A DNA stretch of 36,248 nucleotides. Origin: a virus (lineage: Duplodnaviria > Caudoviricetes). The stretch is taken from positions 1-36,248 of IMG/VR virus record IMGVR_UViG_3300025103_000070; one strand, written 5' to 3'. A program made the position numbers and the translations under genes. Under the pieces are notes generated by a model. It saw only the letters and a program-made list of their open reading frames with translations. It was not told the origin of the DNA and searched no databases. Positions 3,745 through 35,695 of the stretch are shown here, in pieces (the first letter of the stretch is position 1; every line of letters begins with the position of its first letter).

Positions 3745-4349
3745 TGAAAACTATATATAGGTTTTTAGTTAAACCTAAAGAAGAGAGATACGATAATAAA
3801 ATAAAAGTAGGGGATAAAGAATTAATTACTAACACAAGAATAGAAACATTCCAATCTGTTAGTAAAAGAGCAATTGTAGAAGTTGTCCCTGAATATTTTA
3901 AAACTGGTATCCGACCTGGTGATGAAATAATTATTCATCACAATGTATTTCGTAGATTCTACGATATGAAAGGTAAAGAAAAGAATAGTGCTTCTTTTTT
4001 TAAAGATGATTTATTCTTTTGTGATATGGAACAGATATATTTATATAAGAAAAACAATGAATGGATTTCTAATTTAAACTATTGTTTCGTCCACCCTATA
4101 TTATCTACTGATGACTTTAGTACGTTTAAAGAACAATCTAATCTTGGAATACTAAAATATGGCAATAGCTCCTTAGAAGCCAAAGGAATAACCCCTGGAG
4201 CACTTATAACTTTCACTCCAAATTCTGAATTTGAATTTATAATAGATAGTGATCGTTTGTATTGTATGAAATCTAATGATATAGCCTTGACACATGAATA
4301 CCAAGAAGACAAAGTTAAATATAATCCAAGCTGGGCAAAGAGCTGTTGA
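3744..4349 (+). CDS. GroES-like co-chaperonin with two tandem GroES-like units
   Basis: First unit: RFLVKP...AIVEVVP...GIRPGDEIII. Second unit: YCFVHPI...GILKYG...GITPGALITF...FIIDSDRLYCMKSNDI. Both follow the GroES strand pattern. Confidence 0.6.
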   Translation: MKTIYRFLVKPKEERYDNKIKVGDKELITNTRIETFQSVSKRAIVEVVPEYFKTGIRPGDEIIIHHNVFRRFYDMKGKEKNSASFFKDDLFFCDMEQIYLYKKNNEWISNLNYCFVHPILSTDDFSTFKEQSNLGILKYGNSSLEAKGITPGALITFTPNSEFEFIIDSDRLYCMKSNDIALTHEYQEDKVKYNPSWAKSC

Positions 4350-4575
4350 GGAATTAATTAAAGTAGCAAAAGAACCTATTGTAGATTCTGGAGATGATGT
4401 TTCAGCAGATAGATTAAAAAATGCAGCTGCAACTAAAAAGTTAGCTATATTTGATGCTTTTGAAATCCTCACAAGAATAGAAACTGAGAAAGAACTATTA
4501 GAGGATAAACCTAAAAAAGAAGATAAAAAAGAAGAAAGATCTTTTAGAGGTTTTGCCGAAGGGAGGAGTAAGTGA
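4294..4575 (+). CDS. Putative terminase small subunit
   Basis: 93-aa helical protein that overlaps the TerL GTG start. The functional call is positional only. Confidence 0.45.
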   Translation: MNTKKTKLNIIQAGQRAVEELIKVAKEPIVDSGDDVSADRLKNAAATKKLAIFDAFEILTRIETEKELLEDKPKKEDKKEERSFRGFAEGRSK

Positions 4576-6812
4576 GTTACGAGCAAACACTTTGGAAAGA
4601 AGTAAAAGATGTTGTAAACCCTAAGATACTTAAGAAGCAAAATAGATTTAAGAAATGGGAGTATGGTTATAATCCAGATTATGACTTTATAGTAATTAGT
4701 AAAACTGGTAAGATTGGACAAATCATTGAGATTCAAAACCTACGTATTGCATTACCGGCAGAAGACGAATGTTTTAAACGAAGTGAAGTTAAAGAGAAAC
4801 AATACTGGGAAAAACAAGAATACCCAAAAGAATTAAGTAGAATAAAGAGTAGATTTGATTGGGAGGAATATCCAAATGATTTTAAAGAAAAGTGGTACGA
4901 CTATATTGACAATGAATTCAAAAAACGAGACGAGGGTTATTGGTTTTTTAATAACGGTAATCCTACTTATATTACTGGTACTCATTACATGTACTTGCAA
5001 TGGTCAAAGATCGATATCGGATCACCTGAATATAGAGAAGCAAATAGACTCTTCTTTATATTCTGGGAAGCTTGTAAAGCAGATACCAGGTGTTATGGAA
5101 TGTGCTATCTTAAGAACAGACGGTCTGGTTTCTCCTTTATGTCATCAGCAGAACTTGTTAATCAAGCAACAATCTCAAGTGATGCAAGATATGGTATTCT
5201 CTCAAAAAGTGGAGCAGATGCTAAAAAGATGTTCACAGATAAAGTTGTACCAATCTCGATTAACTATCCGTTTTTCTTCAAGCCGATCCAAGATGGTATG
5301 GATCGTCCTAAAACCGAACTGGCATACAGAGTTCCGGCATCTAAACTTACACGTAGAAAACTGGAGACGAACGAACAGCTTAAAGAACTTCAAGGATTAG
5401 ATACTACAATTGATTGGAAAAATACAGGGGATAACTCTTACGATGGTGAGAAATTAAAAATATTAGCCCATGATGAAAGTGGTAAGTGGGAAAGACCTGA
5501 TAATATATTAAACAACTGGCGAGTTACAAAAACTACATTGCGACTAGGAAGAAGGATCGTAGGTAAGTGTATGATGGGCTCAACTTCAAACGCATTAGAT
5601 AAAGGTGGAGACAACTTCAAAAAATTATACTACAATTCAGACGTTACTCAAAGAAATAGAAACGGACAAACAAGTTCGGGACTCTATTCTTTATTCATCC
5701 CTATGGAATGGAATTACGAAGGATTCATGGATTCTTTTGGATCACCTGTCTTCATTACGCCAAAAGATAGAACGATTGCAGTCGATGGTCTCCCAATTAC
5801 AATCGGAGTCATCGAACACTGGGAAAACGAAGTCGAAGGATTAAAATCTGATCAAGATAGTTTAAACGAATATTACAGACAATTTCCCCGTACTGAACAA
5901 CACGCTTTTAGAGATGAAACTAAACAAAGTTTATTTAATTTAGTAAAAATCTACGAACAGATAGATTATAATGAAGAGTTAAATAATAAAGTTAACGTTA
6001 CAACTGGAACGTTTCAATGGGAAAGAGGAATAAAAGATACTAAAGTTATATTTCATCCTAAAAAAGATGGTAGATTTAGAATTAGTTGGGTTCCTGATAA
6101 AAATATCCAAAACAATGTGATTATAAAAAATGGAATTAAACACCCTGGAAACGATCATATCGGAGCATTTGGTTGTGATTCTTATGATATTAGTGGCACT
6201 GTCGACGGTAAAGGGTCTAATGGATCACTTCATGGATTAACTAAGTTTTCTATGGAAAATGTTTTACCTTATCACTTTTTCTTAGAATATATTGCACGTC
6301 CTCAAACAGCAGAAATATTTTTTGAAGATGTACTTATGGCATTAGTATTTTACGGCATGCCTATACTTTGTGAAAATAATAAACCTAGACTTTTATATTA
6401 TTTAAAGCGTAGAGGTTATAGAGGATTTTCTATAAGTAGACCTGATAAAACATGGAATAAACTTTCCACTACAGAAAAAGAAATAGGGGGAATACCAAAT
6501 TCAAGTGAAGATATAAAACAAGCACATGCAGCTGCAATCGAGAGTTATATAGAAGATTATGTTGGTTTTAGAGGAGAAGAGTGTGGAGATATGTACTTTC
6601 AAAGAACATTAGAAGATTGGGCAAAATTCAATATAAATAATAGAACTAAGCATGATGCTACAATAAGTTCAGGTTTAGCAATTATGGCTTGTAATAAGAA
6701 TAAGTATAGACCAACAGCAACTAGAACAAAGAAAAAAATAGATTTAGGAATATCTACATATGATAACACGGGATCGACGTCTAAAATAAATAATATACAT
6801 GATTTACACTAA
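4572..6812 (+). CDS. terL: Terminase large subunit
   Basis: Walker A-like KNRRSGFS, Walker B ILAHDESGKW, coupling motif MGST, RNase H-like nuclease motif FGCDSYD and a C-terminal HD. Lies directly upstream of the portal. GTG start. Confidence 0.92.
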   Translation: MSYEQTLWKEVKDVVNPKILKKQNRFKKWEYGYNPDYDFIVISKTGKIGQIIEIQNLRIALPAEDECFKRSEVKEKQYWEKQEYPKELSRIKSRFDWEEYPNDFKEKWYDYIDNEFKKRDEGYWFFNNGNPTYITGTHYMYLQWSKIDIGSPEYREANRLFFIFWEACKADTRCYGMCYLKNRRSGFSFMSSAELVNQATISSDARYGILSKSGADAKKMFTDKVVPISINYPFFFKPIQDGMDRPKTELAYRVPASKLTRRKLETNEQLKELQGLDTTIDWKNTGDNSYDGEKLKILAHDESGKWERPDNILNNWRVTKTTLRLGRRIVGKCMMGSTSNALDKGGDNFKKLYYNSDVTQRNRNGQTSSGLYSLFIPMEWNYEGFMDSFGSPVFITPKDRTIAVDGLPITIGVIEHWENEVEGLKSDQDSLNEYYRQFPRTEQHAFRDETKQSLFNLVKIYEQIDYNEELNNKVNVTTGTFQWERGIKDTKVIFHPKKDGRFRISWVPDKNIQNNVIIKNGIKHPGNDHIGAFGCDSYDISGTVDGKGSNGSLHGLTKFSMENVLPYHFFLEYIARPQTAEIFFEDVLMALVFYGMPILCENNKPRLLYYLKRRGYRGFSISRPDKTWNKLSTTEKEIGGIPNSSEDIKQAHAAAIESYIEDYVGFRGEECGDMYFQRTLEDWAKFNINNRTKHDATISSGLAIMACNKNKYRPTATRTKKKIDLGISTYDNTGSTSKINNIHDLH
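4912..5400 (+). CDS. Candidate overprinted gene in the +1 frame of terL, a membrane-anchored or lipoprotein-like protein of 162 aa
   Basis: The frame is open from 4845 to 5400. The ATG at 4912 gives MNSKNETRVIGFLITVILLILLVLITCTCNGQ. The overlapping TerL codons avoid TTA entirely. Confidence 0.5.
   Translation: MNSKNETRVIGFLITVILLILLVLITCTCNGQRSISDHLNIEKQIDSSLYSGKLVKQIPGVMECAILRTDGLVSPLCHQQNLLIKQQSQVMQDMVFSQKVEQMLKRCSQIKLYQSRLTIRFSSSRSKMVWIVLKPNWHTEFRHLNLHVENWRRTNSLKNFKD
5605..5844 (+). CDS. Candidate second overprinted gene in the +1 frame of terL, a 79-aa coiled-coil protein
   Basis: GTG start and heptad LSSLRQKIERLQSMVSQLQSE. The overlapping TerL codons are strongly enriched in C-ending forms (GTC, ATC, CTC, TTC, TAC, AAC). 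Confidence 0.5.
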   Translation: METTSKNYTTIQTLLKEIETDKQVRDSILYSSLWNGITKDSWILLDHLSSLRQKIERLQSMVSQLQSESSNTGKTKSKD

Positions 6813-9201
6813 TGGTAATAGTTCATTTCCAGACCAGGTAGTACCTCAAGCTGAGAAAGAAACTTATGAATATGGACTACAAGTAGGTAGAGCTATTGAG
6901 GGAGAATGGTTCTCTGCTGGTCGGACTAATAATAGATTTTCCACTTATTATAATAATTTTCATAATAGAAGATTATATGCGAGAGGGGAACAATCAATTC
7001 AAAAATATAAAAATGAATTATCTATCAATGGTGATTTATCTTATTTAAATTTAGATTGGAAACCGGTTCCTATTATACCTAAATTTGTAGATATATTAGT
7101 AAATGGTATTTCTTCTAGAGATTATGAAATAAATGCTTATGCTCAAGATCCTGAATCTGTGTTTAAAAGAACTAAATATGCCGAAGGATTATTAAGAGAC
7201 ATAAACGCTGAGCAATATCTTAATAAAGTTCAAGAAACTTTAGGATTAGATTTATTTTCATATAAAGATAGAGAAAAAGCTCCTCAAGATACTAGTGAAT
7301 TAGAAGTACATATGCAGTTGGATTATAAACAATCCATAGAAGTAGCAGAAGAAGAAGTTATTAACAACATTCTAGCTAAAAATAAATATGATTTAATTAA
7401 TCGTAGGTTAAATTATGACTTAACTGTATTAGGTATAGCGGCGGTAAAAACCACGTGGAATAGAGCTGAAGGAGTGGTGGTGGATTATGTAGATCCAGCT
7501 CGTATGGTATATTCATATACAGAAGATCCTAATTTTGAAGATATATGGTATGTAGGTGAAGTTAAGAATTTAACATTACAAGAAGTTAAAAAACAATTCC
7601 CATACTTATCTGATGAAGAATTAGAAAGAATACAAAAATACCCAGGTAATTCTAATTATAGTATAGGATGGAATGGTAGATATGATGAAAATAACATCCA
7701 AGTTTTATTTTTTGAATATAAGACATACGTTGATCAAGTTTTTAAAATAAAAGAAACTTCTACAGGGTTAGAGAAAGCGTTAGAAAAACCTGATACCTTT
7801 ATACCGCCAGAAAATGATAACTTTCAAAGAGTATCTAGAGCAATTGAAGTATTATACACTGGAGCTAAAATAGTTGGCCATGATAATATGTTAGACTGGA
7901 AGATGTCTGAAAACATGACTAGACCTACCTCTAATTTAGCTAAAGTAAATATGAATTATGCTATATGTGCTCCTAGAATGTATAAAGGACGTATAGAATC
8001 TACAGTAAGCAGGATAACAGGTTTTGCTGATATGATTCAATTGACTCATTTAAAATTACAACAAGTATTATCCAGAATGGTACCAGATGGGGTATATTTA
8101 GATGTGGATGGTTTAGCAGAGGTAGATCTAGGGAATGGCACAAATTACAACCCAAAAGAAGCTTTAAACATGTATTTCCAAACTGGTAGTATTGTAGGTA
8201 GATCTATGACTCAAGATGGAGATATGAACCCTGGTAAAGTTCCTATTCAAGAATTATCAAGTTCTAATGGTGGAGCTAAAATGCAGAGTCTTATACAAAC
8301 TTATCAATATTATTTACAAATGATAAGAGATGTAACCGGGTTAAACGAAGCTAGAGATGCAAGTACACCGGATTCAGATTCACTAGTTGGGTTACAAAAA
8401 ATTGCTGCAGCAAATTCAAACGTTGCAACACGTCATATATTACAATCTAGTTTATATCTTACTTTAAGAGCGTGTGAGAATATAACTCTTCGCGTAGCTG
8501 ATAGTTTACAATTTCCTTTAACTAGACAAGCTTTAGAATCTAGTATATCTAAATTTAATGTAGGAACTTTAGATGAGTTATCTTCAGTTAATATACATGA
8601 TTTTGGTATATTTTTACAACTAGAACCAGACGAAGAGGAAAAAGCATTATTAGAGCAAAATATTCAAGTAGCTTTACAATCTGGGCAAATTTTCTTAGAA
8701 GATGCTATCGATATTAGAGAAGTTAATAATTTACAATTAGCTAACGCTGTTTTAAAGCAAAGAAGAAAAAGAAAACAAAAACAAGATCAACAGCAACAAC
8801 AGCAGATGATTCAAGCTCAAGCACAAGCAAATGCTCAAGCTGCAGAGCAAGCTGCATTAGCGGAAACTCAAAAACAACAAGTTATATCAGAACAAAACAT
8901 TAATTACGAAAAAGCAAAATCTGAATTTTCTATACAAAAGATGAGAGAAGAAGCTGAAATAAAGAAACAATTAATGGAAATTGAATTCAACTATGACATG
9001 CAACTTGCCAAGGTTAAAGTAGAAACAGAAAAACAAAGAGAAGTAGAAATAGAAGATAGAAAAGATAAAAGAACACAAATACAAGCAACTCAACAAAGTC
9101 AAATGATAAATCAAAGACAAAACGATTTATTACCAACTGATTTTGAGAATCAAAATGTAGAACAACCACAGAGTTTTGGTTTAGATAACACAATGTTATA
9201 A
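6799..9201 (+). CDS. Portal protein
   Basis: 800 aa between TerL and the scaffold/capsid genes. Contains PIIPKFVDILVNG, IRDVTGLNEARDA and a Q/A-rich C-terminal coiled-coil barrel like P22 or crAss-type portals. Confidence 0.88.
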   Translation: MIYTNGNSSFPDQVVPQAEKETYEYGLQVGRAIEGEWFSAGRTNNRFSTYYNNFHNRRLYARGEQSIQKYKNELSINGDLSYLNLDWKPVPIIPKFVDILVNGISSRDYEINAYAQDPESVFKRTKYAEGLLRDINAEQYLNKVQETLGLDLFSYKDREKAPQDTSELEVHMQLDYKQSIEVAEEEVINNILAKNKYDLINRRLNYDLTVLGIAAVKTTWNRAEGVVVDYVDPARMVYSYTEDPNFEDIWYVGEVKNLTLQEVKKQFPYLSDEELERIQKYPGNSNYSIGWNGRYDENNIQVLFFEYKTYVDQVFKIKETSTGLEKALEKPDTFIPPENDNFQRVSRAIEVLYTGAKIVGHDNMLDWKMSENMTRPTSNLAKVNMNYAICAPRMYKGRIESTVSRITGFADMIQLTHLKLQQVLSRMVPDGVYLDVDGLAEVDLGNGTNYNPKEALNMYFQTGSIVGRSMTQDGDMNPGKVPIQELSSSNGGAKMQSLIQTYQYYLQMIRDVTGLNEARDASTPDSDSLVGLQKIAAANSNVATRHILQSSLYLTLRACENITLRVADSLQFPLTRQALESSISKFNVGTLDELSSVNIHDFGIFLQLEPDEEEKALLEQNIQVALQSGQIFLEDAIDIREVNNLQLANAVLKQRRKRKQKQDQQQQQQMIQAQAQANAQAAEQAALAETQKQQVISEQNINYEKAKSEFSIQKMREEAEIKKQLMEIEFNYDMQLAKVKVETEKQREVEIEDRKDKRTQIQATQQSQMINQRQNDLLPTDFENQNVEQPQSFGLDNTML

Positions 9202-10463: not shown

Positions 10464-11921
10464 ATGGGATTTGTAACAGGTGGGAGTTTTCCCGCAAGTT
10501 TAGTTCCTTCTCAAAGACAACAAGCATTATCATCGAATTATTTAAATTTCGCTGATGGTACTTCAGATTGGGCTCAGCAATATTTACCTGAGTTATACGA
10601 GCAGGAAGTAGAGAGATATGGTAATAGAACATTATCAGGTTTCTTAAGAATGGTTGGCGCAGAAATGCCAATGACATCTGACCAAGTAATTTGGTCTGAA
10701 CAAAATAGATTACACGTAGCATATAACCAAGTTGCTTGTACTGGAGCTAATCAATTAACAATTACGTTAACTACACCAGCTACTTCAGCGGCTATTAAAA
10801 GAAACCAAACTATTTTAGTTTCTGATAATGCTACAGGATTAATCACTCAAAAAGCAATTGTAACAGCTGTTTCAGCCGGAGTAGTAACTGCTACTCCTTA
10901 TGATACACCTGCGTTTAGTGCTACTATCCAAACATTATCTGGAGCAAGTGATCTTTCTGTATTCGTTTATGGATCAGAATGGGAGAAAGGTTCTGACGAT
11001 CAAGGAGCAGTTTCAATTACTCCTGGTTTTCAAGAGTATAACAACTCTCCAATTATAATTAGAGATAATTATCAAGTGAGTGGTTCTGATGCTTCTCAAA
11101 TTGGATGGATCGAAGTAGCTACTGAAGATGGAACATCTGGTTTCTTATGGTATTTAAAAGCTGAGTCTGAGACTAGACTTAGATTTGAAGACTATATGGA
11201 AATGGCTTTAGTTGAAGGTGAATTAGCTGGACACACCTTTCAAGGTGTTAACCCTGCTGGCGGTGGTACAGCTTGGACAGCCAATGTTAAAGGTACAATG
11301 GGATTATTCTCTGCTATTGAAAATAGAGGTAATGTTTATCAAGGTTTTGCAGGTGCTGCTGCTCCAGGTTCTGGTGCAATGGCTGATTTCGATGAAATCC
11401 TTAAAAACTTAGATAAGCAAGGTGCTATTGAAGAAAACATGCTTTTCTTACAAAGACAAACGGCTCTTGATTTTGATGATATGATCGCAGCTATGGCTGG
11501 TGGAGGTTATGCTTCTACAGCTTCAGCTTCTTACGGTTTATTTGACAATGAAGAAGAAATGGCGTTAAACTTTGGATTCTCAGGTTTTAGAAGAGGTTCT
11601 TATGACTTCTATAAAACTGATTGGAAATATCTTAACGATGCTTCTACTAGGGGAATGTCTAAAGTGATTGATGGTGTTTTAGTTCCAGCTGGAACTTCTA
11701 CAGTATACGATCAGATGCTAGGTGCTAACATCAGACGTCCTTTCTTACATGTAAGATATAGAGCTTCTGAAACTGAAGATAGACGATACAAAAACTGGAT
11801 CACTGGTTCAGTGGGTGGAGCTTATACTTCAGGTGTTGATGCTATGAACGTACATTTCTTAACTGAGAGATGTTTAGTAACTCAGGCCGCTAATAACTTT
11901 GTGTTGTTTAAAGCAGTTTAA
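10464..11921 (+). CDS. Major capsid protein (HK97 fold)
   Basis: 485 aa after the scaffold. Contains E-loop-like WSEQNRL, PIIIRDNYQVSGSD, a spine helix ending LVEGE, and GLFSAIENRG. Followed by a hairpin. Confidence 0.88.
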   Translation: MGFVTGGSFPASLVPSQRQQALSSNYLNFADGTSDWAQQYLPELYEQEVERYGNRTLSGFLRMVGAEMPMTSDQVIWSEQNRLHVAYNQVACTGANQLTITLTTPATSAAIKRNQTILVSDNATGLITQKAIVTAVSAGVVTATPYDTPAFSATIQTLSGASDLSVFVYGSEWEKGSDDQGAVSITPGFQEYNNSPIIIRDNYQVSGSDASQIGWIEVATEDGTSGFLWYLKAESETRLRFEDYMEMALVEGELAGHTFQGVNPAGGGTAWTANVKGTMGLFSAIENRGNVYQGFAGAAAPGSGAMADFDEILKNLDKQGAIEENMLFLQRQTALDFDDMIAAMAGGGYASTASASYGLFDNEEEMALNFGFSGFRRGSYDFYKTDWKYLNDASTRGMSKVIDGVLVPAGTSTVYDQMLGANIRRPFLHVRYRASETEDRRYKNWITGSVGGAYTSGVDAMNVHFLTERCLVTQAANNFVLFKAV

Positions 11922-16042: not shown

Positions 16043-19000
16043 ATGCCAGAAATAAAAAGCACTTTCATCAAGTCTAAAATGAACAAAGACTTAGATGCGA
16101 GAATATTACCTGAAGGAGAATACAGAGATGCTCAAAATATTGCTGTAAGTAAATCTGATGGACCCGATGTTGGTGCATTAGAAAATATATTAGGTAATAT
16201 TAGCTTAACAGACTTTGGTTTAACTGACAACAATTTAAAAATTATTGGTCATTATGAAGATATGACTAGTAATAGAATATTTGTATTTTTAACTAATTAC
16301 AATGACTCCTCTGTTGACAATTTAAGTAATTTTGCTTTAGGTGGAGCTACAGATACTAGTTTACCTGGCTCCCCAACTTTTGGTGGGAGTAAATGCTATA
16401 TATGTTGTTATAATATTTTAACTGGAATTTCTAATATTTTAGTATCTGGAAATTTTCTTAATTTCTCTAAAACATCACCTATATTAGGAGTTGACTTAAT
16501 AGAAAATTTATTATTTTGGACTGATAACAGAAATCAACCAAGAAAAATAAATATTCAAAAAGCAATAGATGATTCTACATATTACACCACTGAAGATCAA
16601 ATTTCAGTATCTAAATATTACCCGTGGGAAGCAATTACTTTTTTAGATAATGGTAATAATAGTACTTTAAAAAATCGATCTAGTGAATTTTTACCTTACC
16701 ATACTTTATCAACGATAAGTAGTATAGGTGGTGGACCTACTTATGCTATTACTTTAACTGCACCAAACTCAAATATATCTATAGGAGATAAAGCTTATTC
16801 TCCTGACGTACCAGAAGGAGGTTATGCAATTGTATCAGGTGTAGGGGCAATGCCTCCTAACACAGTCACACTAGTATCTAGTAGTGGAGGAATACTAGAT
16901 CCAGATACTATTGGATGGAATATAGGAAGGTTAAAAACAGGAAATGGGCAATTGACAAGTAGTATAAGCTCTAATACTACAGGTGCTACAAATGGAACAC
17001 ATTCTATCAATCTCCCTAATGGAGGAGCAGGAGCCGTAGATGGAGTAACGGTAACTGGTAGTGGTGAAGGTGGAGAAATAACAGTTCACGTTTCTGGTGG
17101 TGTAGTTGTAAAAGTAGATGTTAATATAGCAGGTAAAAACTATGCTAATGGCAATACTATTACTTTCGATGCAACTGCTGTTACTTGGATGGATCCAGCA
17201 AGTACTGATATTATAATAACTTTAGCATCAGTTAACGATGATTTTGAAGCTAATCCTAGTATTTATTTCGCTAAACCTAATCCAGATTATATATCCACAT
17301 TTCCAGGAGATCCAGAATTTTTAAAAGATAAATTTCCAAGATTTAGTTATAGGTTTAAATTTGACGATGGAGAATATTCACTTATGGCTCCATTTAGTCA
17401 AATAGGATTTATACCTGATCAAGGTGGATGTTTTATGTTGGGAGATGAAAGCAATACTAAAACTAGTGGTGTTGTAAAATTTATGGAGAATTGGGTGGAT
17501 ACTGTAGGATTAAATATTTCTCTTCCATCTATAAATACTTCATTTAATGAATTATACAAAGTAGATGAAATAGAAATACTATATAAAGATTCTAGTAGTC
17601 AAGGTGTATATGTGGTGGATTCAATAAAAACAGATCCAGAAAGTGGTTTTGATAGAGGTGGAGTAACAGGTGTAGCTATAACCACTGCCGGTACGGGCTA
17701 TACTAATGGAATATATACAAATATTCCAACTACTGGGGGAACTGGTGTAGGTTTAACTTTTGATTTAACAATAGCTGGCAATGCTGTAACCGCAGTTAGT
17801 GTTAATTCTATAGGATCAGGTTATACGAATGGAGATTTAGTATCTATTACTTTAAGTACAGCTGGCACTGTAGCTATATTAGCTTTAACTATAGGTAGTT
17901 TTTCTAATTACATTTATTGGTATGAATCTCAAAAACCTTATCAAGTACTTCCAGAAAAAGATTTAATAAGGGTGCATGATAAAGTTCCAGTAAGAGCAGC
18001 GGCACAAGCTAGTTCTGGAAATAGAATAATATATGGAAATTTTTATAACAAACATACTTCTCCAGATTATTTAAATTATGAATTAAAATTAGGAGAAAAA
18101 AACACTATTATATCAGGATCCAATATAAAGAAAGAGTTGCCTAATCACACTTTAAAACAAAATAGAAGTTATCAAGTAGGCGTAGTGTTGGTAGATAGAT
18201 TTGGAAGATCTTCTAATGTTATTCTTAGGCAAACTTTAGATAATGTAAATGAAAATTATAATAATTCAACTATATTTGCTCCTTATACTAATGCTGGAGC
18301 CTCACCTTATGAATGGTTTGGGAATTCTTTAAAAATTAATTTTTTAGATCAAATTCCAGCAACGGATTCTACTCCAGGATACCCAGGTCTTTATAGTACG
18401 TCAAATCCTTTGGGGTGGTATTCTTATAAAATAGTTATTAAACAACAAGAACAAGAATATTACAATGTTTATTTACCTGGCGCATTAAGTGGAAATATAG
18501 ATTGGAGTGGAGCGAAAACTAGTGAACTTACCTATAGTAATGGAACTTTTGTATCTAATATAGCTTTATTCGGGGAAAATATAAATAAAGTTCCTAAAGA
18601 AACTATTAATGTAGGTCCAACAGATGAAATATTTGGTAGTAAAGTTCAACTTTACAATAGAGTTATGCAAGTAGGTCCTGCTGCTACTACTAGTGCAAAT
18701 TCTCAATCTCCGCCTAATGGAAGCGCACACGATGTAACAGCTATACAACAGTTTAGAGATTTAGGAAGTTGGACTTTAGAAAAAGTTAATTTAACAACTT
18801 CTCCTTTTTGTTATCCACAATCTGATCCATTTTTCAATGTGGATGATAATCCATATATAGCTTCTTTATCTACCCCTTTTAGAGTTGGTTATCCAACAAC
18901 TGATCAAATAAACCCTTATTGGAATTTTGCTAAAAATTTAATAGTTTACGAAACAAATGCTGTAAAATCTAATTTAGATATATATTGGGAGACTACCACA

Positions 19001-19885
19001 ACTGGTTTAATAAATCAATTAAACTCTTCCATTTATACTAGCGCAGGAAATGATACACCTGATAAATTAAGTGATTTTTCTATTATATTTGACGAAAGCT
19101 CTGCTCCTAACACAGATATAGTTAATACGGCTTTTGAAGCTTTAGACACTGGTGGTAATCAGATGGGAGATCAAACAGCAACAATGGTTTTAGATAAAAT
19201 AGTAAATGGTAATGGAGTTACAGTGCAAACAGGTAATTCAGGTGTGTTTGATCTTTATCAATTTAGTGCTGCTGCTCCTAGTGTGTCCCCAACATGGAAA
19301 ATAAGAACAGGTGTAGGGCAATATTTTTCTTTTCAACAAGATAGTGATGTTGTAAATAGTTATACTTTTTATGTAACCGCTACAGGTAATGGAGGTAGTA
19401 AAACTTTTAGGTTTTTTGGTTCGTTAAGTAACGCAACACCTATTATACATAGTGGTGTTACTCACGCTGGAGTTACAGTAGTGAGTGGTGATAGTATAAC
19501 GGTATCTAGCGCTATCGCTGCTGGTCCATCAACTAACGACTATATTCTTAAATTTACAGACTTTATAAACGGAACCAATGCAGCTAATCCTATCATACAA
19601 AACAAAGTAAATGGATGTACATTTTTTGTTGATTCCGTAACTAATGTAGCTGGCTCTATTGTAACGCCATCCTTTTTTAAAATTCTTAATGGAACATGGC
19701 CTGCAACATCTTTAACAGGTCCATTTCTTCCAATTTTAAAAGCGTCAAGTGCAAACGTACAAGGCACATGGATTGTTAAGATTAAACTTACGGATTGCTG
19801 GCAAATATTTGGTTCAAATCAAGGTAGTTATAGTAATCCACCTGCTTTACAAGGAGAGTTTGATGTTACAATAGAAATAACTTAA
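16043..19885 (+). CDS. Tail stabilisation / nozzle (muzzle) protein, N-terminal part, with inserted domains
   Basis: MNKDLDARILPEGEYRDAQNI, LLFWTDNRNQPRKINI, FSYRFKFDDGEYSLMAPFS, GNRIIYGNF and YQVGVVLVDRFGR are motifs of crAss-like tail stabilisation proteins. Confidence 0.75.
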   Translation: MPEIKSTFIKSKMNKDLDARILPEGEYRDAQNIAVSKSDGPDVGALENILGNISLTDFGLTDNNLKIIGHYEDMTSNRIFVFLTNYNDSSVDNLSNFALGGATDTSLPGSPTFGGSKCYICCYNILTGISNILVSGNFLNFSKTSPILGVDLIENLLFWTDNRNQPRKINIQKAIDDSTYYTTEDQISVSKYYPWEAITFLDNGNNSTLKNRSSEFLPYHTLSTISSIGGGPTYAITLTAPNSNISIGDKAYSPDVPEGGYAIVSGVGAMPPNTVTLVSSSGGILDPDTIGWNIGRLKTGNGQLTSSISSNTTGATNGTHSINLPNGGAGAVDGVTVTGSGEGGEITVHVSGGVVVKVDVNIAGKNYANGNTITFDATAVTWMDPASTDIIITLASVNDDFEANPSIYFAKPNPDYISTFPGDPEFLKDKFPRFSYRFKFDDGEYSLMAPFSQIGFIPDQGGCFMLGDESNTKTSGVVKFMENWVDTVGLNISLPSINTSFNELYKVDEIEILYKDSSSQGVYVVDSIKTDPESGFDRGGVTGVAITTAGTGYTNGIYTNIPTTGGTGVGLTFDLTIAGNAVTAVSVNSIGSGYTNGDLVSITLSTAGTVAILALTIGSFSNYIYWYESQKPYQVLPEKDLIRVHDKVPVRAAAQASSGNRIIYGNFYNKHTSPDYLNYELKLGEKNTIISGSNIKKELPNHTLKQNRSYQVGVVLVDRFGRSSNVILRQTLDNVNENYNNSTIFAPYTNAGASPYEWFGNSLKINFLDQIPATDSTPGYPGLYSTSNPLGWYSYKIVIKQQEQEYYNVYLPGALSGNIDWSGAKTSELTYSNGTFVSNIALFGENINKVPKETINVGPTDEIFGSKVQLYNRVMQVGPAATTSANSQSPPNGSAHDVTAIQQFRDLGSWTLEKVNLTTSPFCYPQSDPFFNVDDNPYIASLSTPFRVGYPTTDQINPYWNFAKNLIVYETNAVKSNLDIYWETTTTGLINQLNSSIYTSAGNDTPDKLSDFSIIFDESSAPNTDIVNTAFEALDTGGNQMGDQTATMVLDKIVNGNGVTVQTGNSGVFDLYQFSAAAPSVSPTWKIRTGVGQYFSFQQDSDVVNSYTFYVTATGNGGSKTFRFFGSLSNATPIIHSGVTHAGVTVVSGDSITVSSAIAAGPSTNDYILKFTDFINGTNAANPIIQNKVNGCTFFVDSVTNVAGSIVTPSFFKILNGTWPATSLTGPFLPILKASSANVQGTWIVKIKLTDCWQIFGSNQGSYSNPPALQGEFDVTIEIT

Positions 19886-24339: not shown

Positions 24340-27300
24340 ATGGATGAAGATTATTTGAGTAATATATACAACGGTTTAGGTGGTGAAGATTTTTTCGGAA
24401 AATACGATGATTTTACGACTTTAATAACATCAGACAATGAGTATAGGAAAAATATTCACAATCATTTTGGAAAAAATGTATTAGGTACTTTTAATGATTT
24501 TACACAATTAACAACTGGTAATGCAATAGAAGAAAAAGGAAATTATTATGGTGATGAAGGTATAATAGAAAAAACAACCGTTACCACACCACAACCTGAC
24601 GCAGAATGGAAACCTAAGTATGCGAGTTCTTATTATAAATCTCTTCCATTGATGGATGAGGAAAGATCTAATTTTGAAGAATGGTTAGAAAAAGATAGTA
24701 GAGAAGCTTTACCTGAAGAAGTTGAAGCTGAAAGAAGAAAAAAAGATACTGAAGTATTAGATATAAATCAACAAATTGAATTAGGTTTTAATGTTCCTTT
24801 ACAACCTATTGAAGTGGGAAGAGATCCGCTTACAGAGGATGTTGAAAGAAGAAAAAATTATTTATACAATGATGAAGAATATCTTTCTTTAGATAGATAT
24901 GTTAATGATGATATTCCAATTATAGAAGAAGAGGAGGAAGAAGATGGGTATTATACTCGAGCATTAGATTTTATAGAAAATGATCCTAGAGCTTTAGTTT
25001 TACCACCAGTTTTAGGAATGAAAGGTTTAGAACTACTAGGTGATGGAGTTGGAAGTGTGCTAGATGGTGTTAGATATTTAATAGGTAAACCAACTAGTAT
25101 AGTAGGGGCAACTGATACAGAGATTGACGCAAGTGATGAAACTCTTAAGCAAAGAGGTGCTCAACTTAAAACTGATCAAATAAATAAAGCGATAAGAGAT
25201 GGTGTAGGAACAAAAGTAATTTATATTATGGAGGATGGTCAATTAACTCCTCACGTATCTAAAAATACTAATGTCACTAAAGCAGACATCGTAAAAACTG
25301 AACAATTAGTTAGAGATCACCAAAGTGCGTTAAATGTTCAACGATTGAGTGATAATGAGCAAAAAATTTTTTACAAGCAAAAGGAGTTAGAAGAATTACC
25401 AGAATGGGATGATGTAAGAAAAAAGGAATTAACTCAAGAGATTGCAAAGTTGAGTGAAGAAGAAGGTGGTAGTAATAAAATATTTGCAGAAGATGGATCT
25501 TATATAGACAAATCAAAAGCTACGCCAAGTGATAAAGAAGCTAATGAAAGTATAACTCAAGAAGCTAAAGAGCAATATATTCTTACAGATCTTCAAAGTA
25601 TGATTAAAGCTCAAGATGAATTATCGATGAAAATTCTCTATCTTGCAACAGAAATTGATAAAGATCCAGATGTTATAGATAAAGGGATGAGTTTTTTAGA
25701 AGTTCTAGGAGATGCATATCAAGAATGGGAGAGTGAAGGAAACCGTTTATATAATCTTAGTTTTTTACCTGGTTTTGGAGATGATCCCCGTTTAAAAGAA
25801 AAACAAACTAGAGATATTGGTCTACTTGGAGCGTGGCAAGATGAAGATCTTATATGGAAAAACGATAAAGAGATTATTAAGAAAATGGTGGAAGGATATT
25901 ATGTTGATCCTTCTTTAAGTTATTTACCAGGAAAAAGCAATGTTGCAACAAAGTTTAATGATTTACTACACCAGTATAATGTAGTTAATAGAGCTATTCA
26001 ATTAAACATGGATCCAACTCAAAATGTAGATAATGATTTGATAGATAATCTAGCTACAACAGGAGCTGGGTTTGCAGAGTTTGTAACTCCTAGTAGGGTA
26101 GAAACGGATAGATCTGATGCAAGAGCTTTTATTAACTTTGCTAAAGATGATGTTGGTATAAACATAAGCGAGAGACAATTAGAGATTTTAGAAGGTAGTG
26201 CTGGTGAGATTGCTGCTCATACCATTCCTGAAGTAACTAAAATAATGGGGGAGTTTTTTGTTGCTAGAAAAATGGTTGGTCCAGCTAGAATAAAACAATT
26301 AGGCTCAGTAATCACCGCTTTAGGTGCTAATAAACCTAAAATAGTTAGAAGAGCTTTAAATGTGAGTGCAGCTATTATAGAAGAAGCAGTCGCTATTCAA
26401 GCAGTTAATACGGCTATTAGACCAGTAACTGGGGAAGAGGACATGAGTTTAACTTGGGCAGTTGGTGCTGGAGTTGCAGGTTCGTTTTTTAAATATTTTT
26501 CCCCTGAAGCTATTGAAGGTATTTGGACTGCTAATAATAAAGTTGTTAACAGATTAATAACTACAATAGGCTCTTCAGAAACTGCTAAAATGTTATCTTC
26601 TCAATTAATTCAACCGGCTATAGGTACAGGCGTAATGATAGCAGGAGAGATAAGTGAAGGATTGTTAAAGGGAAGAGGTTTTAGTGATACTATGAAAGAG
26701 GCTTTATTAGAGCAAGAAAGTAGAACTGGAGAATTTAATGTTAATTGGGATAAACTTATTGGAACATGGGGAGCTTTATGGGCTATGCAAATTGCTAAAG
26801 CACCTGTTAATATAGTTCGTCAACCTTTGAAAGCTATTGAAGCTGATATATTAGCTTTAGGTAAGAAGACAAGATTTACTAAGCAGGCAGCTAAAGAGTT
26901 AGGTATTGAATCTAACTACGTGGAAAAAGATGCAGAAGGAAATTATAAAATAACAGAAGATTATATACAGCAAAAATATAGGGAAAAGATACAAGAATTA
27001 GCTAATGATAAAACTTTATCTTCTAAAGAAAAATCAGAGAAATTCAAAAAACTTAATAAAAGCTATAGACAATTAAATAATCATAGACAATACTTAGATG
27101 TAAAAAAAGCTATCACTGACCAACAAGGAGGAAAACAGCTATGGGCGGATCAATATGTAGCTAATATGAATCTAGGTTATGGAAGAAAATTAAGTGGATT
27201 AGATATAGAAGCTTTAGGAAATACACCTAGCGCGAAATTAACTAAACTATTAGTTGAAGATCCTTACAATCCTTTGTCTTCTCAAAAAAATTCTCAATTA

Positions 27301-30300
27301 GCTAATTACATTTATAAAGTAAGAAAGTATGCTGAAACATTAAGTAGTGAAGCTAATTTAATTGTTGCTTCTCAAGGCGGGCTAAGAGGTAAAGCTAGAA
27401 CTAAGTATTTTGATGAAGCTTTAAAAAGAGATAATGTAAAAAATGAAATTACAATTTTAGATGGGTTACTTAAAAAGAAAAAAATAAGTGAAAAAATCTA
27501 CAATGAAAAGAAAGGTGAATTAGAAAAGCAACTAGAAGGTATTGAGTCTAATATAGATAAAATAACAGATGATTTTACAACAGAATTAAAAAGTTCTGAT
27601 AAATTTAAAAAAATATCTAAACCTATAATTGAAAAAGCTAAAGAAGCAGGGTTTGAAATTATCGAAGATAAAACATTAGAAGGTGAAGCTGAAATAGGAG
27701 GAGGAAGATTTAAATATAATCCAGATAAAGCCCCAGAATTCTTTACTTTAGGAGTACATGAAGTAGGTCACCCTATCGTGAATAAAATGCTTGAAGGTAA
27801 AACTCAAGCAGAAAAAGATTCATTTGTACAAGAGTTCAAAAAAATACTTCCAGAGAAAACTTATCGTATGATAGAAGAAAGACTCTTAGGAAGACAAAAT
27901 GTAAAAGACTATAAAGAAAATCCAAATACAGTGGAATGGATGAATGTATTTTTGGATCTTACCAGTAGTGGAGCTTTAAAATACGAAGGTAATTTCTTTG
28001 ATAAAGTAGGGGATTTTCTTAATAAATATAAGAAAGGTAAAGACTATAGTTTAGATTTAAATTTTGAGAGTCCAAAAGAGGTATATGAAAACCTAAAAGC
28101 GTTTGCCGAAGCAGCTGGTAAAGGGAAAGCTGCAGTTGGGGAAAAAGGAGAAATGCTCGTAGAAGCTTTGAAGAAAGCTCCACAGATGGAAGGGGTACAG
28201 CGTTCTATGACTGAAAAAGAAATTAATAAATTTACTAAAACTGAAGAAGGTAAACCAATGACACAAGTAGAGTGGTTTGAGTTTACTGGAAAAATGAACG
28301 ATAAAGGAGATTTAGTTAATCAAGAAAAGATAGGGAAAGCTTTTGAAGGATTGATAAATTCTAAAATTAAAGGTGATAAAAATCAACCCGGATGGATATT
28401 TGGAGATAATGCTAAAAAAGATATTATTGATGATTTTAAGTTTAGATTAAGAAAAAAAGGATTTTATGATAGAAAAATAGAAGAATTTAATCCAGAAAAA
28501 AATGATAACTTTTCTGGTTATATGTCTAGTATAATTCACAATGTCTATAAAGATGTATTAGCAGCGAATAAAAAAACAATTCCAACTGTATCTAGAGATA
28601 TACAAGTAGAAGGTAAGACAATGCCTGAAGCTGAATCTAAAGATCTTGATCCTTCTCAATTAGCAGATATTGCTTTAGAAAAAGAAAGAAAAGCTAAAGC
28701 AGCGAAGAATAAACCTAAAGAAACTATTGCTTCTAAAGTAGGAATGCCCCTTAAGATTAAAGAAAGAGGTAAGGAAATAGATTCTGAAAAATATATTGAA
28801 ACTGCGGCTGAAAAAGTAGATTATAGAAAATTACCAGAAATTTCAACTCCTCCTGGTCCTAATCAAACTATCCCTCCATTTCTTAGTAAATTAAAGTCTC
28901 AAATTGCTACCTCTAGAAAATATAAAGAAGAAGTAGCTCAATCTATGGGAACTAGAAAAGACTACATGGATTATCTAGATAAAAACTTTGAAAAAATAGT
29001 TAAAAATTTACCACCATCATATTTTTCTGGTTTAATAGAAAGAGAAATAAAAAGTGGTAAAGAAGTATCATTACCTAAAAACCTGATTCAAAAAGATACT
29101 GGTAAAGGGTATACTTCTAACTGGCAAGGAAAGAAAGCTGTAGGAACTAAAGCCGCTAAAACAGGTATTACTTCAGGTCTTCAAAGAATAAGATTAAATC
29201 CTAATTTTGATTTTAAAAATAAAGCTAATATTGAAGCATTTCAAAAAGCTTTTAAATCTCAAGGAAGAAAAGAAGGATTAGCCGGACAAGTAGCTGCTAA
29301 AGGTGTAATTGATTATCTACAAGAAAAGTTAGGAACAGGAAGTAAAATAGATAGACAATTAAAAGATATTTATGAACTTCAAGGAAGAGAATTACCTAAA
29401 GATTATGCTACACAATTTAAACAACAAATTGCTAAATCTGAAGTTGAAAGATCTTTTACTGATGAGAAAAAATTACGTCAAGAAGAAATTCAAAAAAGAT
29501 TATCATCTTTAAAAAAGCATCCTTTATTTATTAAAGAAATGCAGGGTATGGCAAATGCTATTAAAACATTAGCAGACAAACTAGAGTTAACTATACCTAA
29601 AGAGATTGGAAAAGATGGAACAGTAAGAGATCCTATTGGTCAACAAAAACTATATGAGTTAGCTACTAATATTTTACCTTTATATTACGGTGAAAGTATA
29701 CTAAGCGGTTCTACTTGGAGTAATACTAAGCTGGGAAAAGGAATGTGGTTTTCTAGTGACTTAAGATCAAAAGCTTTAAGCGACTTTAGATCTAATATAA
29801 AAAATGAATTAAAAAGAGAAAAAATAGAATTAATAAATTCTGGCATGAAAAGCCCAGGATTAGATCCTATGAAAACTTCATCATTTAAGGCGCGAGGTAA
29901 AGAAAGCAAATGGATAGAAAATGTAGATAAAAATTATAAAGGATTAGATTTATTCGTAGATCAAACATTTAAAATGTTGAAAGAAAATCCAGATTTTTTA
30001 GGAGAATTTTTAGCTATGATGAAAGGATCTTCAGCAGCTAGCACTCATTTTTGGAGAAATTTTGCTCAAGTAATCGGAAAAGATTTAAGCTGGAACATCG
30101 ATAAACAAGGAGGAATAGGAGAACATGCTTTAGTTCAAAATCAAGCAGGAGAATTCATGACTAAAGCTGTATTAGAATCTATAGCTCGTGACAATCCTAA
30201 AGCAAAAAACATTGCAAAAGAACTATTAAATGAAAACTATTTTCAAATTTTAATAAGTCATGCAAACGATGGCATGTTAAAACAAATAGGATTACAATCG

Positions 30301-33300
30301 AGCATGCCAAAAGGATTTTGGGAGAGTTGGAATAAAGCAGTGGAAACAGGAAATATTAAAGAAGCTTGGTCTGTATGGAGTAGATATTTCAATCCTAAAA
30401 TAAATAAAATTAAAAACGGCAAAGGAGAATTTGGGTTTAATCCTAATGAAATAATTTTACTTAATAGAAAAACAGGTGCAATAGAATCTTTAGCAGATAT
30501 TTTTGGAATAGGTGAGAAACAATTTGGTAGGGATATTTTAAATCCTGAAATTATAGCTAAACAACAAGAACTTATTGGAGAATGGGCTATTAGAAATCCA
30601 AAATACAACACTATAAAGAAATTGCGTGAACATTTAGCTATAGAGTTAGACATGCTTAATTCTAAAAGAGATGCTACTTTAGAATCTAAAACAGAAATAG
30701 AAAAAATAGATAATATATTTAAAATATCTGAAAAAGCTTCTAATGAAATGTTAGTACAAAAATCTAACACTTTTGACAAAGCTTTAGATGAAGGTAAAAA
30801 AATAGAAAAACCTATTAAAAAAGCTAGAGTATTTGATTTTGATGATACTATTGCTAAAAGTAAAAGTAAAGTATTATATGAAACTATAGATGGTAAAAAA
30901 GGAGAATTAACTCCAGAACAATTTGCAGAAAGAGGTGAAAGATTAAAAGAAGAAGAAGGAGCTATATTTGATTTTTCTGAATTTAATGAAGTAAAAGAAG
31001 GAAAAAAAGGACCTTTATTTGAAGTATTCAAAAAAATGAAAGAAGCTGTTGGAGATAGAGATATGTTTATATTAACTGCACGAGCGCCAGAATCTGCTAT
31101 TGCTATTCAAAAGTTTTTAAAAGAAATGGGGGTTGACATCCCATTAGATCATATTACGGGATTGGGTGATAGCTCTCCTTTAGCCAAATCAGATTGGGTT
31201 GTAGGAAAAGCTGCCGAAGGATATAATGACTTTTATTTTGCTGATGATCATTTACCTAATGTTAATGCTGTTAAGAAAGTGTTAAATCAATTAGATGTAA
31301 AAGGGAAAGTTCAACAAGCTATCATGCAGAAGAGCAATACTCTTAATGATAAGTTTAATGAAATAATAGAACAGAAAAAAGGTATTGGAAAAGAAAAAGT
31401 ATTTTCTGATATTAAAGCGGAGATAAGAGGAGCAGAAGCTAGACGACAAAGATTTTTTATTCCACCTTCTGCAGAAGATTTTAGAGGTTTATTATATACT
31501 ACACTACCTAAAGGAGCTAAAGGAGAAAAAGCATTAGAGTTTTACAAAGAGTCATTATTAGATCCATATTCTAGAGCTATGGAAAATCTATCTACAGATA
31601 GAATTAATTTAATGAATGATTTTAAAGCTTTAAAGAAAGAACTAGATGTACCTAAAGATTTAAAGAAACAAACAGAGTCAGGCTTTACTAATGCTCAAGC
31701 TGTCAGAGTACATTTGTGGAATAAAACAGGTAAAGAAATCCCTGGATTGTCTAAAGCAGATTTAAAAGAACTTAATGATATTGTGGAAAAAGATTTTAGA
31801 TTGAAATCTTTTGCAGATCAAATTCTAGCAATAACCAAAGGTGATGGTTATTCTACACCTACTAAGAATTGGAATGCTGGAACCATAACAACTGATTTAA
31901 TAGATGTATTAAATACGACTAAGCGTAGTAAGTATTTAGAAACATGGAAACAAAATGCAGACATTATATTTAGTAAAGATAACTTAAATAAATTAGAAGC
32001 TGCATTTGGAAAGAAATATAGAGAAGCTGTAGAAAACTCTTTAAAAAGAATGAAATCTGGAAGCAATAGGATAGCTGGAGGGAATAAATTAAGTAATCAA
32101 GTATTAGATTATATAAATAATTCCACAGCTGTTACCATGTTTATGAACACTAGATCAGCTCTGCTTCAAACTATATCTGCTGCTAACTTTATCAATTGGA
32201 GTTTTAATAGTCCTTATCATGCTGGGAAAGCATTTGCTAACCAACCTCAATACTGGAAAGATTTTACTAAGTTGATGAACTCTGATTATTTAGTGGACAG
32301 AAGAAACGGATTGAAGTTAAATATAAACGAATCTGAAATCGCTAATGCAGCCAAGACTTCTAAGAATAAAGCTAAAGCAGCTTTAAATTATATTTTGGAA
32401 AAAGGGTATTTACCTACTAAATTCGCAGATAGCTTTGCAATAGCTTCTGGTGGTGCTACTTGGTATAGAAATAAGATTAAAGATCTTATGAAAGATGGAT
32501 TGTTAACAGAGAAAGAAGCAGAAGCTATAGCTATGAAAGAATTTAGAGATATTTCAGAAATGTCTCAACAATCTTCAGATCCATCTAAAATATCTTCGCA
32601 ACAATCTAGTGATATAGGTAGAATAATATTGCAATATGTTAATACTCCTATGCAGTATGCTAGGATACAGAAAAGAGATATACAAGATATAGCTAATAAA
32701 CGTAGAATGCCTGGCAAAACTCTAGCTCAAAGCAACAGGATTAGAGCAAGTAGAATCGCTTACTACATGTTTTTACAGAACATGATGTTTAATGCGCTTC
32801 AACAAGGATTGTTTGCTATTGGATTTGGAGATGATGAAATGGATGAGAAAGATGAAAAATCATTATTCAAGACTGCAAATGGAATGCTTGACTCTAGCTT
32901 GAGGGGATTAGGTTTAGCAGGTGTAACAGTTCAAGTTATTAAAAACTTAGGAATTGATATTTATGATAGATCACAAAAATCCCGGCCAGAATATTCAGAT
33001 GCTTGGATTAAACTATTAGAATTTTCACCTGCTGTAAAGAGTAAATTATCTAAATTACGTAGTGCTGCATGGCCTTTTGATTCTAAAAAACGAAGAGCTG
33101 AAGTATTTGAAAAAGGTTTTAGTTTAGATAACCCAGCTTATGAATCCATGGCTAAAGTTATATCAGCAGCTAGCAATGTTCCATTAGACAGGTTATATAG
33201 TAAAATAAACAATTTAAAAGCAGCAGCATCTGACGAGGCTGAAGCTTGGCAATCAATAGCAATGATCTTAGGATGGCCAGAATGGCAAATTATGGAAGAT

Positions 33301-33393: not shown

Positions 33394-33669
33394 ATGAAAA
33401 TAAGCGAAGGAACTGAGTTTAAGATAGATATAAAAACTATCATAAGCGTTATTGTTACAACCTCTATGTTCGTAGGAATGTATTATACTTTACAATCTGA
33501 CATTGAAGAAGCTAAAACACTTCCTCCAGCAGAGATAAAAAGAATGGAATATGATCTAAAACAAGAGTGGGTTAGTGAACATATTAGTGAATTAGAGGAA
33601 AAAGTAGACGAAATTCTTTATTGGTGTAAAGAATTAGATAGAGAATTACATAAGAAAAAAAATAAATAA
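33394..33669 (+). CDS. Small single-pass membrane protein with coiled coil, possibly a lysis component
   Basis: Hydrophobic segment TIISVIVTTSMFVGMYYTL followed by a heptad region. Confidence 0.55.
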   Translation: MKISEGTEFKIDIKTIISVIVTTSMFVGMYYTLQSDIEEAKTLPPAEIKRMEYDLKQEWVSEHISELEEKVDEILYWCKELDRELHKKKNK

Positions 33670-34282: not shown

Positions 34283-35695
34283 CTACTTTATCACCTTAGT
34301 AACTGTCCCATTATCCCATAAATGTATCATAAAACCTTTTTCAATTGAATCAATTTCTTGCCCATGGATATTTATAGTTTTAATAATACGTTTTCTTTCT
34401 CCTTTAACTTGAATAGCTATTGGATGAAATGTTTCACTTTTTCCATCATAATCTACTTGTCTTAATCTATAATAAGTATAACCTACGTGAGGATTATAAT
34501 CATTAAGAAAGTATGACAATTGGGTATTAGTAGTGCCTGCTCCTATTACACTATCTACTAAAGACCATTGTTCTAAATCTGTAGATTTTTGAACTGTAAA
34601 ATAATCATTATTAATTTGGGAAGCTACAGTCCATTCTATATGAACAACATTTCCACTTACTTCTCCATTAAATGATACTAAAACTATAGGTAAAGCATTT
34701 CCGCCTCCTTGGTGTCCAAATACAGTATTAGGTCTAATAGAATTAGTATATCCATTGGAACTAGGGAAACTTCCATCACTGTAATTATATACTACTGAAT
34801 TAGATTTAGCAGTGTATTGAAATTCAGGATAACTAAGAGCGTATGATCCATGATTGTTAACTACTTTAACAACTAAATTTCTCACTCCATCCCATCCATA
34901 AGCTCCTTGTAAAACAACTTCATTCCATCCGGGAACAAAACTTATAGGACCATCATATACTTTTTTCCACTCATCCCAAGGACCTGCTCCAGCTTCAGGC
35001 ATAGTTCCATCATGAAATATTTCCTCAGGTGTCATTGCCATCCAAATTTCTTGATTATTTAAAATCATAGAATTTCCATTCAGAACATTCCAACTAATTT
35101 TCTCCATTGTTAAAGGTACTCCACCTAATTCTGCAACGGTATATATAGAAGCACTCCAACTATAATCATAATATCCATAAGCAGGAACTCTACCATCGTT
35201 TAACGTAGAGTTAGGATCTCCAATAGTAACTTCATTACCAGTTCCACCGCTACTACCACCTCCCGTGGAAGCTGGAGTTTTATATATCATTACTTCAGTA
35301 GAAGTAGAATTAGACACGCAATTATATTCAGTTAAGTGTACATACAAAACACCTGTGTAAGCTGCTGTATGTTTAATATAAGAAGTATATCCTGTACAGC
35401 CAGCAAAGTCATCATTAAAATCCACAATAACTCCTAGCTCATCTATTAGAGTTAATTGAGTATCATATGAAGCATTTACCCCACCATGATTTCCACAAGT
35501 AGAAAATTCATATTCATCTCCAGTAGTTATATTTACTCTTATAATTTCACCTGCCCAATTATAACTAGTAGCAGATCCCCATGTATTATTACTTGGCGTA
35601 TACGCTGTACTTGGATAATAATTAGTACCATTATCACATTGAGCATTATAGAATCCTATAATCACAATAAATATTAAAGTTAATAAATTTTTCAT
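34283..35695 (-). CDS. Secreted protein resembling Bacteroidota T9SS cargo (signal peptide, PPC-like domain, beta-sandwich, LPxxLxxF domain, CTD-like tail)
   Basis: MKNLLTLIFIVIIGFYNA|Q, YEFSTCG...YDTQLTL...FNDD, LPIVLVSFNG...YYRLRQVDYDGK, and C-terminal IIKTINIHGQE...DNGTVTKVIK. Confidence 0.7.
   Translation of the reverse strand: MKNLLTLIFIVIIGFYNAQCDNGTNYYPSTAYTPSNNTWGSATSYNWAGEIIRVNITTGDEYEFSTCGNHGGVNASYDTQLTLIDELGVIVDFNDDFAGCTGYTSYIKHTAAYTGVLYVHLTEYNCVSNSTSTEVMIYKTPASTGGGSSGGTGNEVTIGDPNSTLNDGRVPAYGYYDYSWSASIYTVAELGGVPLTMEKISWNVLNGNSMILNNQEIWMAMTPEEIFHDGTMPEAGAGPWDEWKKVYDGPISFVPGWNEVVLQGAYGWDGVRNLVVKVVNNHGSYALSYPEFQYTAKSNSVVYNYSDGSFPSSNGYTNSIRPNTVFGHQGGGNALPIVLVSFNGEVSGNVVHIEWTVASQINNDYFTVQKSTDLEQWSLVDSVIGAGTTNTQLSYFLNDYNPHVGYTYYRLRQVDYDGKSETFHPIAIQVKGERKRIIKTINIHGQEIDSIEKGFMIHLWDNGTVTKVIK

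Follow-up and report, generated by a model that had tools for sequence, protein, structure and literature searches.

The stretch of DNA that was analysed (the window) is the 36,248-nucleotide record IMGVR_UViG_3300025103_000070, a linear virus record about 60% complete that carries terminase, portal, capsid and crAss-type muzzle genes. About 15,000 IMG/VR stretches match its TerL, and the nearest cultured relatives by this protein are Flavobacterium Elemovirus (45% identity) and phages of Cellulophaga, Maribacter and Tenacibaculum, from which we infer a Bacteroidota host. Open +1 frames lie within terL (Table 1). Elsewhere in the window were noted a 3016-aa gene without significant family match (24340-33390), in the position where crAss-like phages carry their virion RNA polymerase; a minus-strand gene (34283-35695) whose 470-aa product, with a host-like C-terminus and a signal peptide that ends in NA-Q, has no Pfam match and resembles a 629-aa secreted-looking protein at L285:15937-17826; two long antisense ORFs without family matches (30258-31031, minus strand, 257 aa; 4173-4736, minus strand, 187 aa); and a +2 run of 52 codons within the portal gene (8031-8186; P = 4e-4, uncorrected for 44 runs).

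Table 1. Positions in the window of terL, of the frames nested in it and of a possible partner gene
Feature	Position	Strand	Remarks
terL, terminase large subunit, 746 aa	4572..6812	+	PHROG 6681, E 4.5e-167; host (ancestral) frame
ORF0, candidate third +1 frame, TerL codons 44-88	4696..4836 (open 4696-4833)	+	TTG 4714, 40 aa, basic; closest clade only
ORF1, +1 frame over TerL codons 92-276	4846..5400	+	likely CDS from ATG 4912, 162 aa, TAG 5398-5400; open in 48/81 close homologues
ORF1 predicted export leader	4912..4998	+	short n-region; 18-residue hydrophobic stretch 4936-4989; Cys27 4990-4992; Cys29 4996-4998
ORF1 mature tail	4999..5397	+	basic, no second TM, predicted mostly disordered; open but without sequence constraint
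ORF2, second nested +1 frame, TerL codons 343-423	5599..5844 (open 5599-5841)	+	GTG 5605, 79 aa; predicted helical hairpin
TM + coiled-coil gene, acidic coiled coil, i-spanin-like architecture	33394..33669	+	possible, unproven ORF1 partner

A preliminary description of this DNA had pointed to a +1 frame of terL open for about 185 codons and had read it as a nested gene that constrains TerL codons. Stops at 4843 and 5398 were indeed found to bound 184 open codons (4846-5397), and the codon counts made by hand were reproduced. Thus, none of the ten TerL leucines in the stretch uses TTA (CTT five times, CTC twice, CTG twice and TTG once), none of the 13 Leu, Ile or Val codons that stand before a purine has the NTA form, and the eleventh leucine is a TTA that makes the closing TAG. 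The product from ATG 4912 likewise has a hydrophobic segment followed by TCTCNGQ. In the 21 other window genes tested, the next longest +1 run was 75 codons. When TerL codons were redrawn, the exact probability that the ORF1 stretch would be open was 6e-8 with genome codon usage and 3e-6 with terL usage, so that an open frame of this length was almost never obtained. Among 1000 redraws of 15 window genes, no +1 or +2 run reached 184 codons (the longest was 139). The 15 genes contain 44 long alternative-frame runs, of which ORF1 alone stands out as an extreme outlier (P = 1e-7, against 4e-4 for the next run). Sigma-70 promoter matches were at chance level (14 versus 11.3).

The state of the frame in relatives was determined for a close set of 81 loci, consisting of the window and the best 80 of 600 IMG/VR candidates matched by TerL region. 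No +1 stop was present over TerL codons 114-249 in 48 of these loci (0.02 expected), here called open, and the other 33, here called closed, contained 1-8 stops each (5-8 expected). Among 80 loci matched by more distant TerL, 79 were closed and one was open; the +1 frame was closed too in TerL of Manatee Spring phage and of Elemovirus. Thus, the frame is bimodal among homologues, being either fully open or freely interrupted, and stops are not scattered through it, although these counts overstate independence because the loci are kin. Out-of-sample loci were selected by an 11-codon leader signature alone (236 loci, of which 138 were non-redundant and covered the tail). Over codons 146-250, the frame was open in 51 of 51 new loci that carried the hydrophobic-leader signature and in 0 of 50 that carried the alternative one, and the corresponding values for previously sampled loci were 16 of 17 and 0 of 20. 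A further set (set C), open in 78 of 78 loci, was selected with the +1 protein and is biased. A protein search also returned 31 unnamed gene calls that represent the same overlap in relatives; four calls that were inspected (P0012, P0017, P0018 and P0027) proved to be TerL/+1 chimeras, likely from assembly frameshifts, and were excluded.

Avoidance of rare codons was ruled out as the cause of the open frame, NTA codons being retained before a pyrimidine, where no stop arises (642 of 1085 within the frame, compared with fractions of 0.63-0.69 outside it), which argues that stops were purged rather than rare codons. The corresponding absence of NTA before a purine in open loci (0 of 1061) is true by definition of an open locus and is not evidence. 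Closed relatives with identical TerL residues carry the expected +1 stops. Taken with the codon redraws, the bimodal homologues support the earlier proposal that a nested gene constrains TerL codons: ORF1 is almost certainly a real protein-coding overlap, and these results indicate that its frame is held open by selection in the window phage and in many relatives.

In a FastTree phylogeny of 193 rows from which the overlap columns had been removed, all open loci except L132 fell in one clade (support 98) of 120 rows, 93 of them open and 27 closed, with at least 7 changes of state. An IQ-TREE phylogeny of the nuclease domain (58 rows) placed the root elsewhere and forced at least 5 changes. The host frame is older and more widespread, as TerL of Elemovirus, of Manatee Spring phage and of 79 of the 80 distant loci is without ORF1; the root and the number of origins are unsure. 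These trees indicate repeated gain or loss of ORF1 across lineages, and the history is read here as one birth followed by several losses.

Selection on the N-terminal part of the product was evident from four-fold degenerate TerL codons. Thus, codon 135 gives a +1 leucine in 48 of 48 and 31 of 31 open window-type loci versus 7 of 33 closed loci, and codon 137 does so in 47 of 48 and 31 of 31 versus 13 of 33. A small residue precedes a Cys in 78 of 79 open window-type loci, the single exception being L028, and in 24 of 33 closed loci. When leader residues and open state were compared across 5 independent pairs, no significant association emerged. The caveat in the preliminary description, that T-ending codons make +1 frames hydrophobic by default, does not fully account for the leader, the h-region of the window exceeding, given no stop, 99.9% of redraws (P = 0.0008); in eight other loci the same test gave P values of 0.003-0.09. 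In the lineage L165-L212, the leader lies approximately 15 codons upstream (TerL codons 95-126), ends IGSC-AT and belongs to an ORF of about 235 aa, the h-region at the former position has been lost, and codon 135 reads Gln in +1 in 46 of 47 loci. The start in this lineage has ATAAAAA at -13 to -7 in 45 of 45 loci within an invariant A-rich context. These observations indicate selection on a hydrophobic leader that ends in a small residue and Cys, and indicate further that one lineage moved the leader upstream to a canonical lipobox (IGSC), releasing the old one.

Of 124 open loci that could be scored, 113 have an ATG 14-40 codons ahead of the Cys and the other 11 do not. By its context, ATG 4912 ranks at the 4th percentile among real starts; the best ATGs of the closest clade have scores similar to those of closed loci. 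Judged from its leader, the ORF1 product is very probably exported, and its lipidation is reasonably likely. The NG-Q of the window-lineage leader could alternatively, with the Gln rule of Bacteroidota in mind, be a signal-peptidase-I site. The window lipobox, LITC/TCTC, has Thr at -1, outside the consensus [LVI][ASTVI][GAS]C that follows the h-region, for which the available text of PMC6139136 also lists working exceptions such as AWAC; the IGSC/TGSC of a sister lineage fits. Residues after the Cys of ORF1 leaders (TCNGQR, SGPK or ATV) do not form the C-X-K-(D/E)2 export signal that Bacteroidota surface lipoproteins carry after the Cys, as described in the available text of PMC5080379, and the product, if lipidated, would therefore face the periplasm.

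In contrast with the leader, the tail is kept open but shows no sequence constraint. The synonymous-site check put forward in the preliminary description bore out only part of the overlap: synonymous variation was reduced over the leader (0.47-0.79, with an interval that includes 1 in the closest clade) and over ORF2 (0.47-0.77) but not over the tail (0.95-1.14 of baseline), and a pairwise synonymous test over TerL codons 125-249 revealed no difference between open and closed loci (p = 0.68). The end of the tail varies from TerL codon 250 to codon 332, its net charge is positive (medians of +6 to +20), and a second TM segment was found in 0 of 113 ORF1 products. AlphaFold2 (AF2) gave no fold for ORF1, the leader being the only confidently modelled part and residues 32-162 having pLDDT values below 50; the tail is thus predicted to be disordered. 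No family match to ORF1 or ORF2 was found in Pfam, PHROGs (window and 65 members) or the ESM Atlas.

ORF2 was absent from the reading in the preliminary description. Synonymous variation was lowest at TerL codons 341-400, with values of 0.47, 0.77 and 0.51 in open groups compared with 0.75 in closed close relatives and 1.04 in the distant set. The ORF2 frame, which played no part in the choice of loci, was open in 22 of 23, 40 of 51, 45 of 45 and 29 of 30 loci (5.5, 13.6, 6.1 and 5.1 expected, respectively) and in 21 of 75 distant loci (17.5 expected); new signature-selected loci agreed. Stops have been purged and synonymous sites constrained even where ORF1 is lost. The start codon differs among lineages. 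The AF2 model is a helical hairpin (pLDDT 81), for which Foldseek returned no match at E 0.001. RNA structure was rejected as the source of the constraint (-3.2 kcal/mol; 0 of 9 pairs covary), and a DNA site stands as an alternative to a product; on the pattern of stops and synonymous sites, ORF2 probably encodes a second small protein. ORF0, a candidate and the weakest of the three frames, follows a series of stops and extends for 46 open codons; it was open in 23 of the 24 closest loci (0.13 expected) and in 9 of 9 new close loci, all of them near kin.

A lysis or envelope role had been suggested for ORF1 on the ground that no clear spanin pair was visible. The window does contain the TM + coiled-coil gene, which is i-spanin-like by architecture, and represents only some 60% of a complete genome, so the lack of a pair is weak evidence. 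In five close open genomes a gene of the same family directly follows the amidase, and the family occurs also in closed L067 and L464. Lysis genes were surveyed in the upstream regions of 40 chosen genomes, in the rest of eight of those and in new pattern loci, with 'spanin-like' assigned by architecture, PHROGs naming none of these genes. Among open genomes that showed an endolysin or spanin-like gene, 21 of 22 were without a spanin-like gene. The exception, L028, is the only open genome with its own u-spanin-like gene, and at no other open locus do both Cys residues lack a small residue in front of them. A gene for a lipoprotein with a C-terminal TM segment was noted in this genome at L251 (L028) 10760-11206, on the terL strand, as were a leader of degenerate form (IICIC) and stops within both ORF2 and ORF0; L028 is possibly a case of loss in progress.

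Closed genomes with at least 65.5% TerL identity comprised five with a spanin-like gene and four without, and more distant closed genomes two with and four without. The five carry a swapped lysis cassette, at least four being from one lineage, and the four (which include the complete L067) have an endolysin and neither ORF1 nor a spanin-like gene; an either/or link between ORF1 and a spanin is consequently weak and may reflect one or two events. An apparent lipoprotein of closed L067 was rejected as a substitute gene, since a homologue-like gene occupies the same place in open L217. Other observations in relatives were, in L256-L279, a GroEL/GroES pair and numerous small, very basic ORFs clustered upstream of terL, with an exchange of lysis cassettes among lineages (amidase or M15, and either of two holin types), and, at L285:12430-14184 and L288 (minus strand) 17065-19232, a conserved trio after the giant gene that, labelled by the look of the sequences, consists of an exported protein with an aromatic barrel-type C-terminus, a TM + coiled-coil protein and an exported thioredoxin-like protein.

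We tentatively propose that ORF1 encodes a late lipoprotein-like helper of outer-membrane breakdown at lysis. Because ribosomes would have only a weak ATG within the late terL message to start from, little product would be made; Sec would export this product, Lgt and LspA would lipidate it and cleave it at the Cys, and it would come to sit on the periplasmic side of the outer membrane. There the polycationic tail would destabilise the membrane by charge rather than through a fixed fold, the protein acting alone or with the TM + coiled-coil protein. An unconstrained tail is unexpected for a specific spanin partner, and the Thr at -1 of the window lipobox and the weak context of ATG 4912 also tell against such a helper.

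The same lipoprotein might instead block the phage receptor or exclude competing phages, protecting progeny late in infection in the manner of T5 Llp and T1 Cor. A lipoprotein-like leader joined to a fast-changing tail would suit this unlikely role. So would gains and losses that are patchy, with at least 5-7 changes of state forced, as befits an accessory, host-dependent trait, and so would the fact that the complete, closed L067 lyses without ORF1 or a visible spanin. Receptor binding, however, usually needs a fold, and the tail is predicted to be disordered, varies in its end point and has no PHROG family similarity in 65 members.

Less likely again, the product in the window lineage would escape lipidation, being either a signal-peptidase-I substrate cut at NG-Q or a protein that stays uncleaved in the inner membrane and acts as a regulator of the holin or as an i-spanin-like component. 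The 18-residue hydrophobic stretch of the window would allow this, and among the 48 open loci of the close set (best 80 of 600 and the window) Gln follows Gly in 23 and the second Cys is lost in 10; a related phage protein family moreover shows both NA-Q and TCCG-Q ends. On the other hand, in many open loci the uncharged run ahead of the Cys is no longer than about 10-12 residues and Pro follows SG (15 of 48 and 17 of 31), and a sister lineage has the canonical IGSC lipobox.

That translation of the +1 frames matters rather than their products, with coupling or ribosome traffic tuning TerL or ORF2 output, is improbable, although it would explain a tail that is open yet unconstrained, the tandem arrangement of three +1 frames and the stop directly before the ATG in 15 of 48 open close loci (best 80 of 600 and the window); the hydrophobicity and Cys context of the leader appear to be selected and were rebuilt elsewhere in another lineage, which points to a protein with a destination. 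The remaining account, that codon bias, RNA structure or a DNA site removes stops without any gene, draws on the first Cys and several hydrophobic residues being forced by conserved TerL residues, on the kinship of the loci (counts not independent) and on the weak ATG context, but is largely refuted for ORF1, and very improbable, in view of the chance tests, NTA retention before pyrimidines, the signature-selected loci and the lack of conserved structure at ORF2.

More broadly, the terminase ATPase gene may serve as a gene nursery in a large group of aquatic phages, its +1 frame forming a 'shadow operon'. As many as three genes born de novo, one of them the lipoprotein with a signal peptide rebuilt at a second position, would together provide a spanin-free means of outer-membrane breakage in Bacteroidota; as a whole this reading is unlikely. 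The second (perhaps third) nested frame and the relocated leader, which serves as an internal control, appear to be new: in a literature search that took in few subscription papers, no published report of a terL overlap or of a second frame was found. The overlap is in effect a natural experiment, on a large scale, in how genes arise de novo within a highly conserved phage gene. Open, closed and re-engineered lineages occur side by side, so that the origin of the gene, the remodelling of its leader and its loss can each be followed at individual sites. In practical terms, terL codon usage and synonymous rates are distorted in this group and gene callers miss the +1 frames. According to the available text of Kongari et al. 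(PMC6139136), 91 of 677 phages yielded no spanin. Part of this 'spaninless' puzzle would be an annotation gap if the job of a spanin is done by genes hidden in terL.

Among known systems, the closest in kind is lambda Rz1, an o-spanin whose gene lies within Rz in the +1 frame (PMC6139136). As far as the available text of that source describes it, Rz1 shares with ORF1 a lipoprotein-type leader, nesting in a +1 frame, an unstructured periplasmic part and a late operon. ORF1 differs in being embedded in terL, neither within, overlapping nor beside an i-spanin gene, its candidate partner (the TM + coiled-coil gene at 33394) lying 28 kb away and occurring also without ORF1; it is in addition longer (about 140-235 aa), with a variable end and, in the window lineage, an atypical lipobox. 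By architecture, then, ORF1 appears Rz1-like in kind but is not an o-spanin. Unimolecular spanins of the T1 gp11 type are described for the flavophages Ingeline and Nekkels in the available text of PMC8776804, and ORF1 resembles these in its N-terminal lipoprotein-type signal but is without a C-terminal TM segment (0 of 113); genes with u-spanin architecture adjoin the endolysin in some relatives without ORF1. The PhiKT gp28 disruptin, a 56-aa cationic amphipathic peptide, is a proposed outer-membrane disruptor in a spaninless phage (available text of 10.1101/515445). Its cationic character recurs in the ORF1 tail, although ORF1, with 162 aa, an export leader and a long tail, is not a short peptide. 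PhiX174 E, inside D, and MS2 L are single-gene lysis proteins of tiny phages, in contrast with the present group, which has a holin and an endolysin; what ORF1 would have in common with them is its origin, an essential gene having been overprinted in the +1 frame by a gene for a membrane-directed product.
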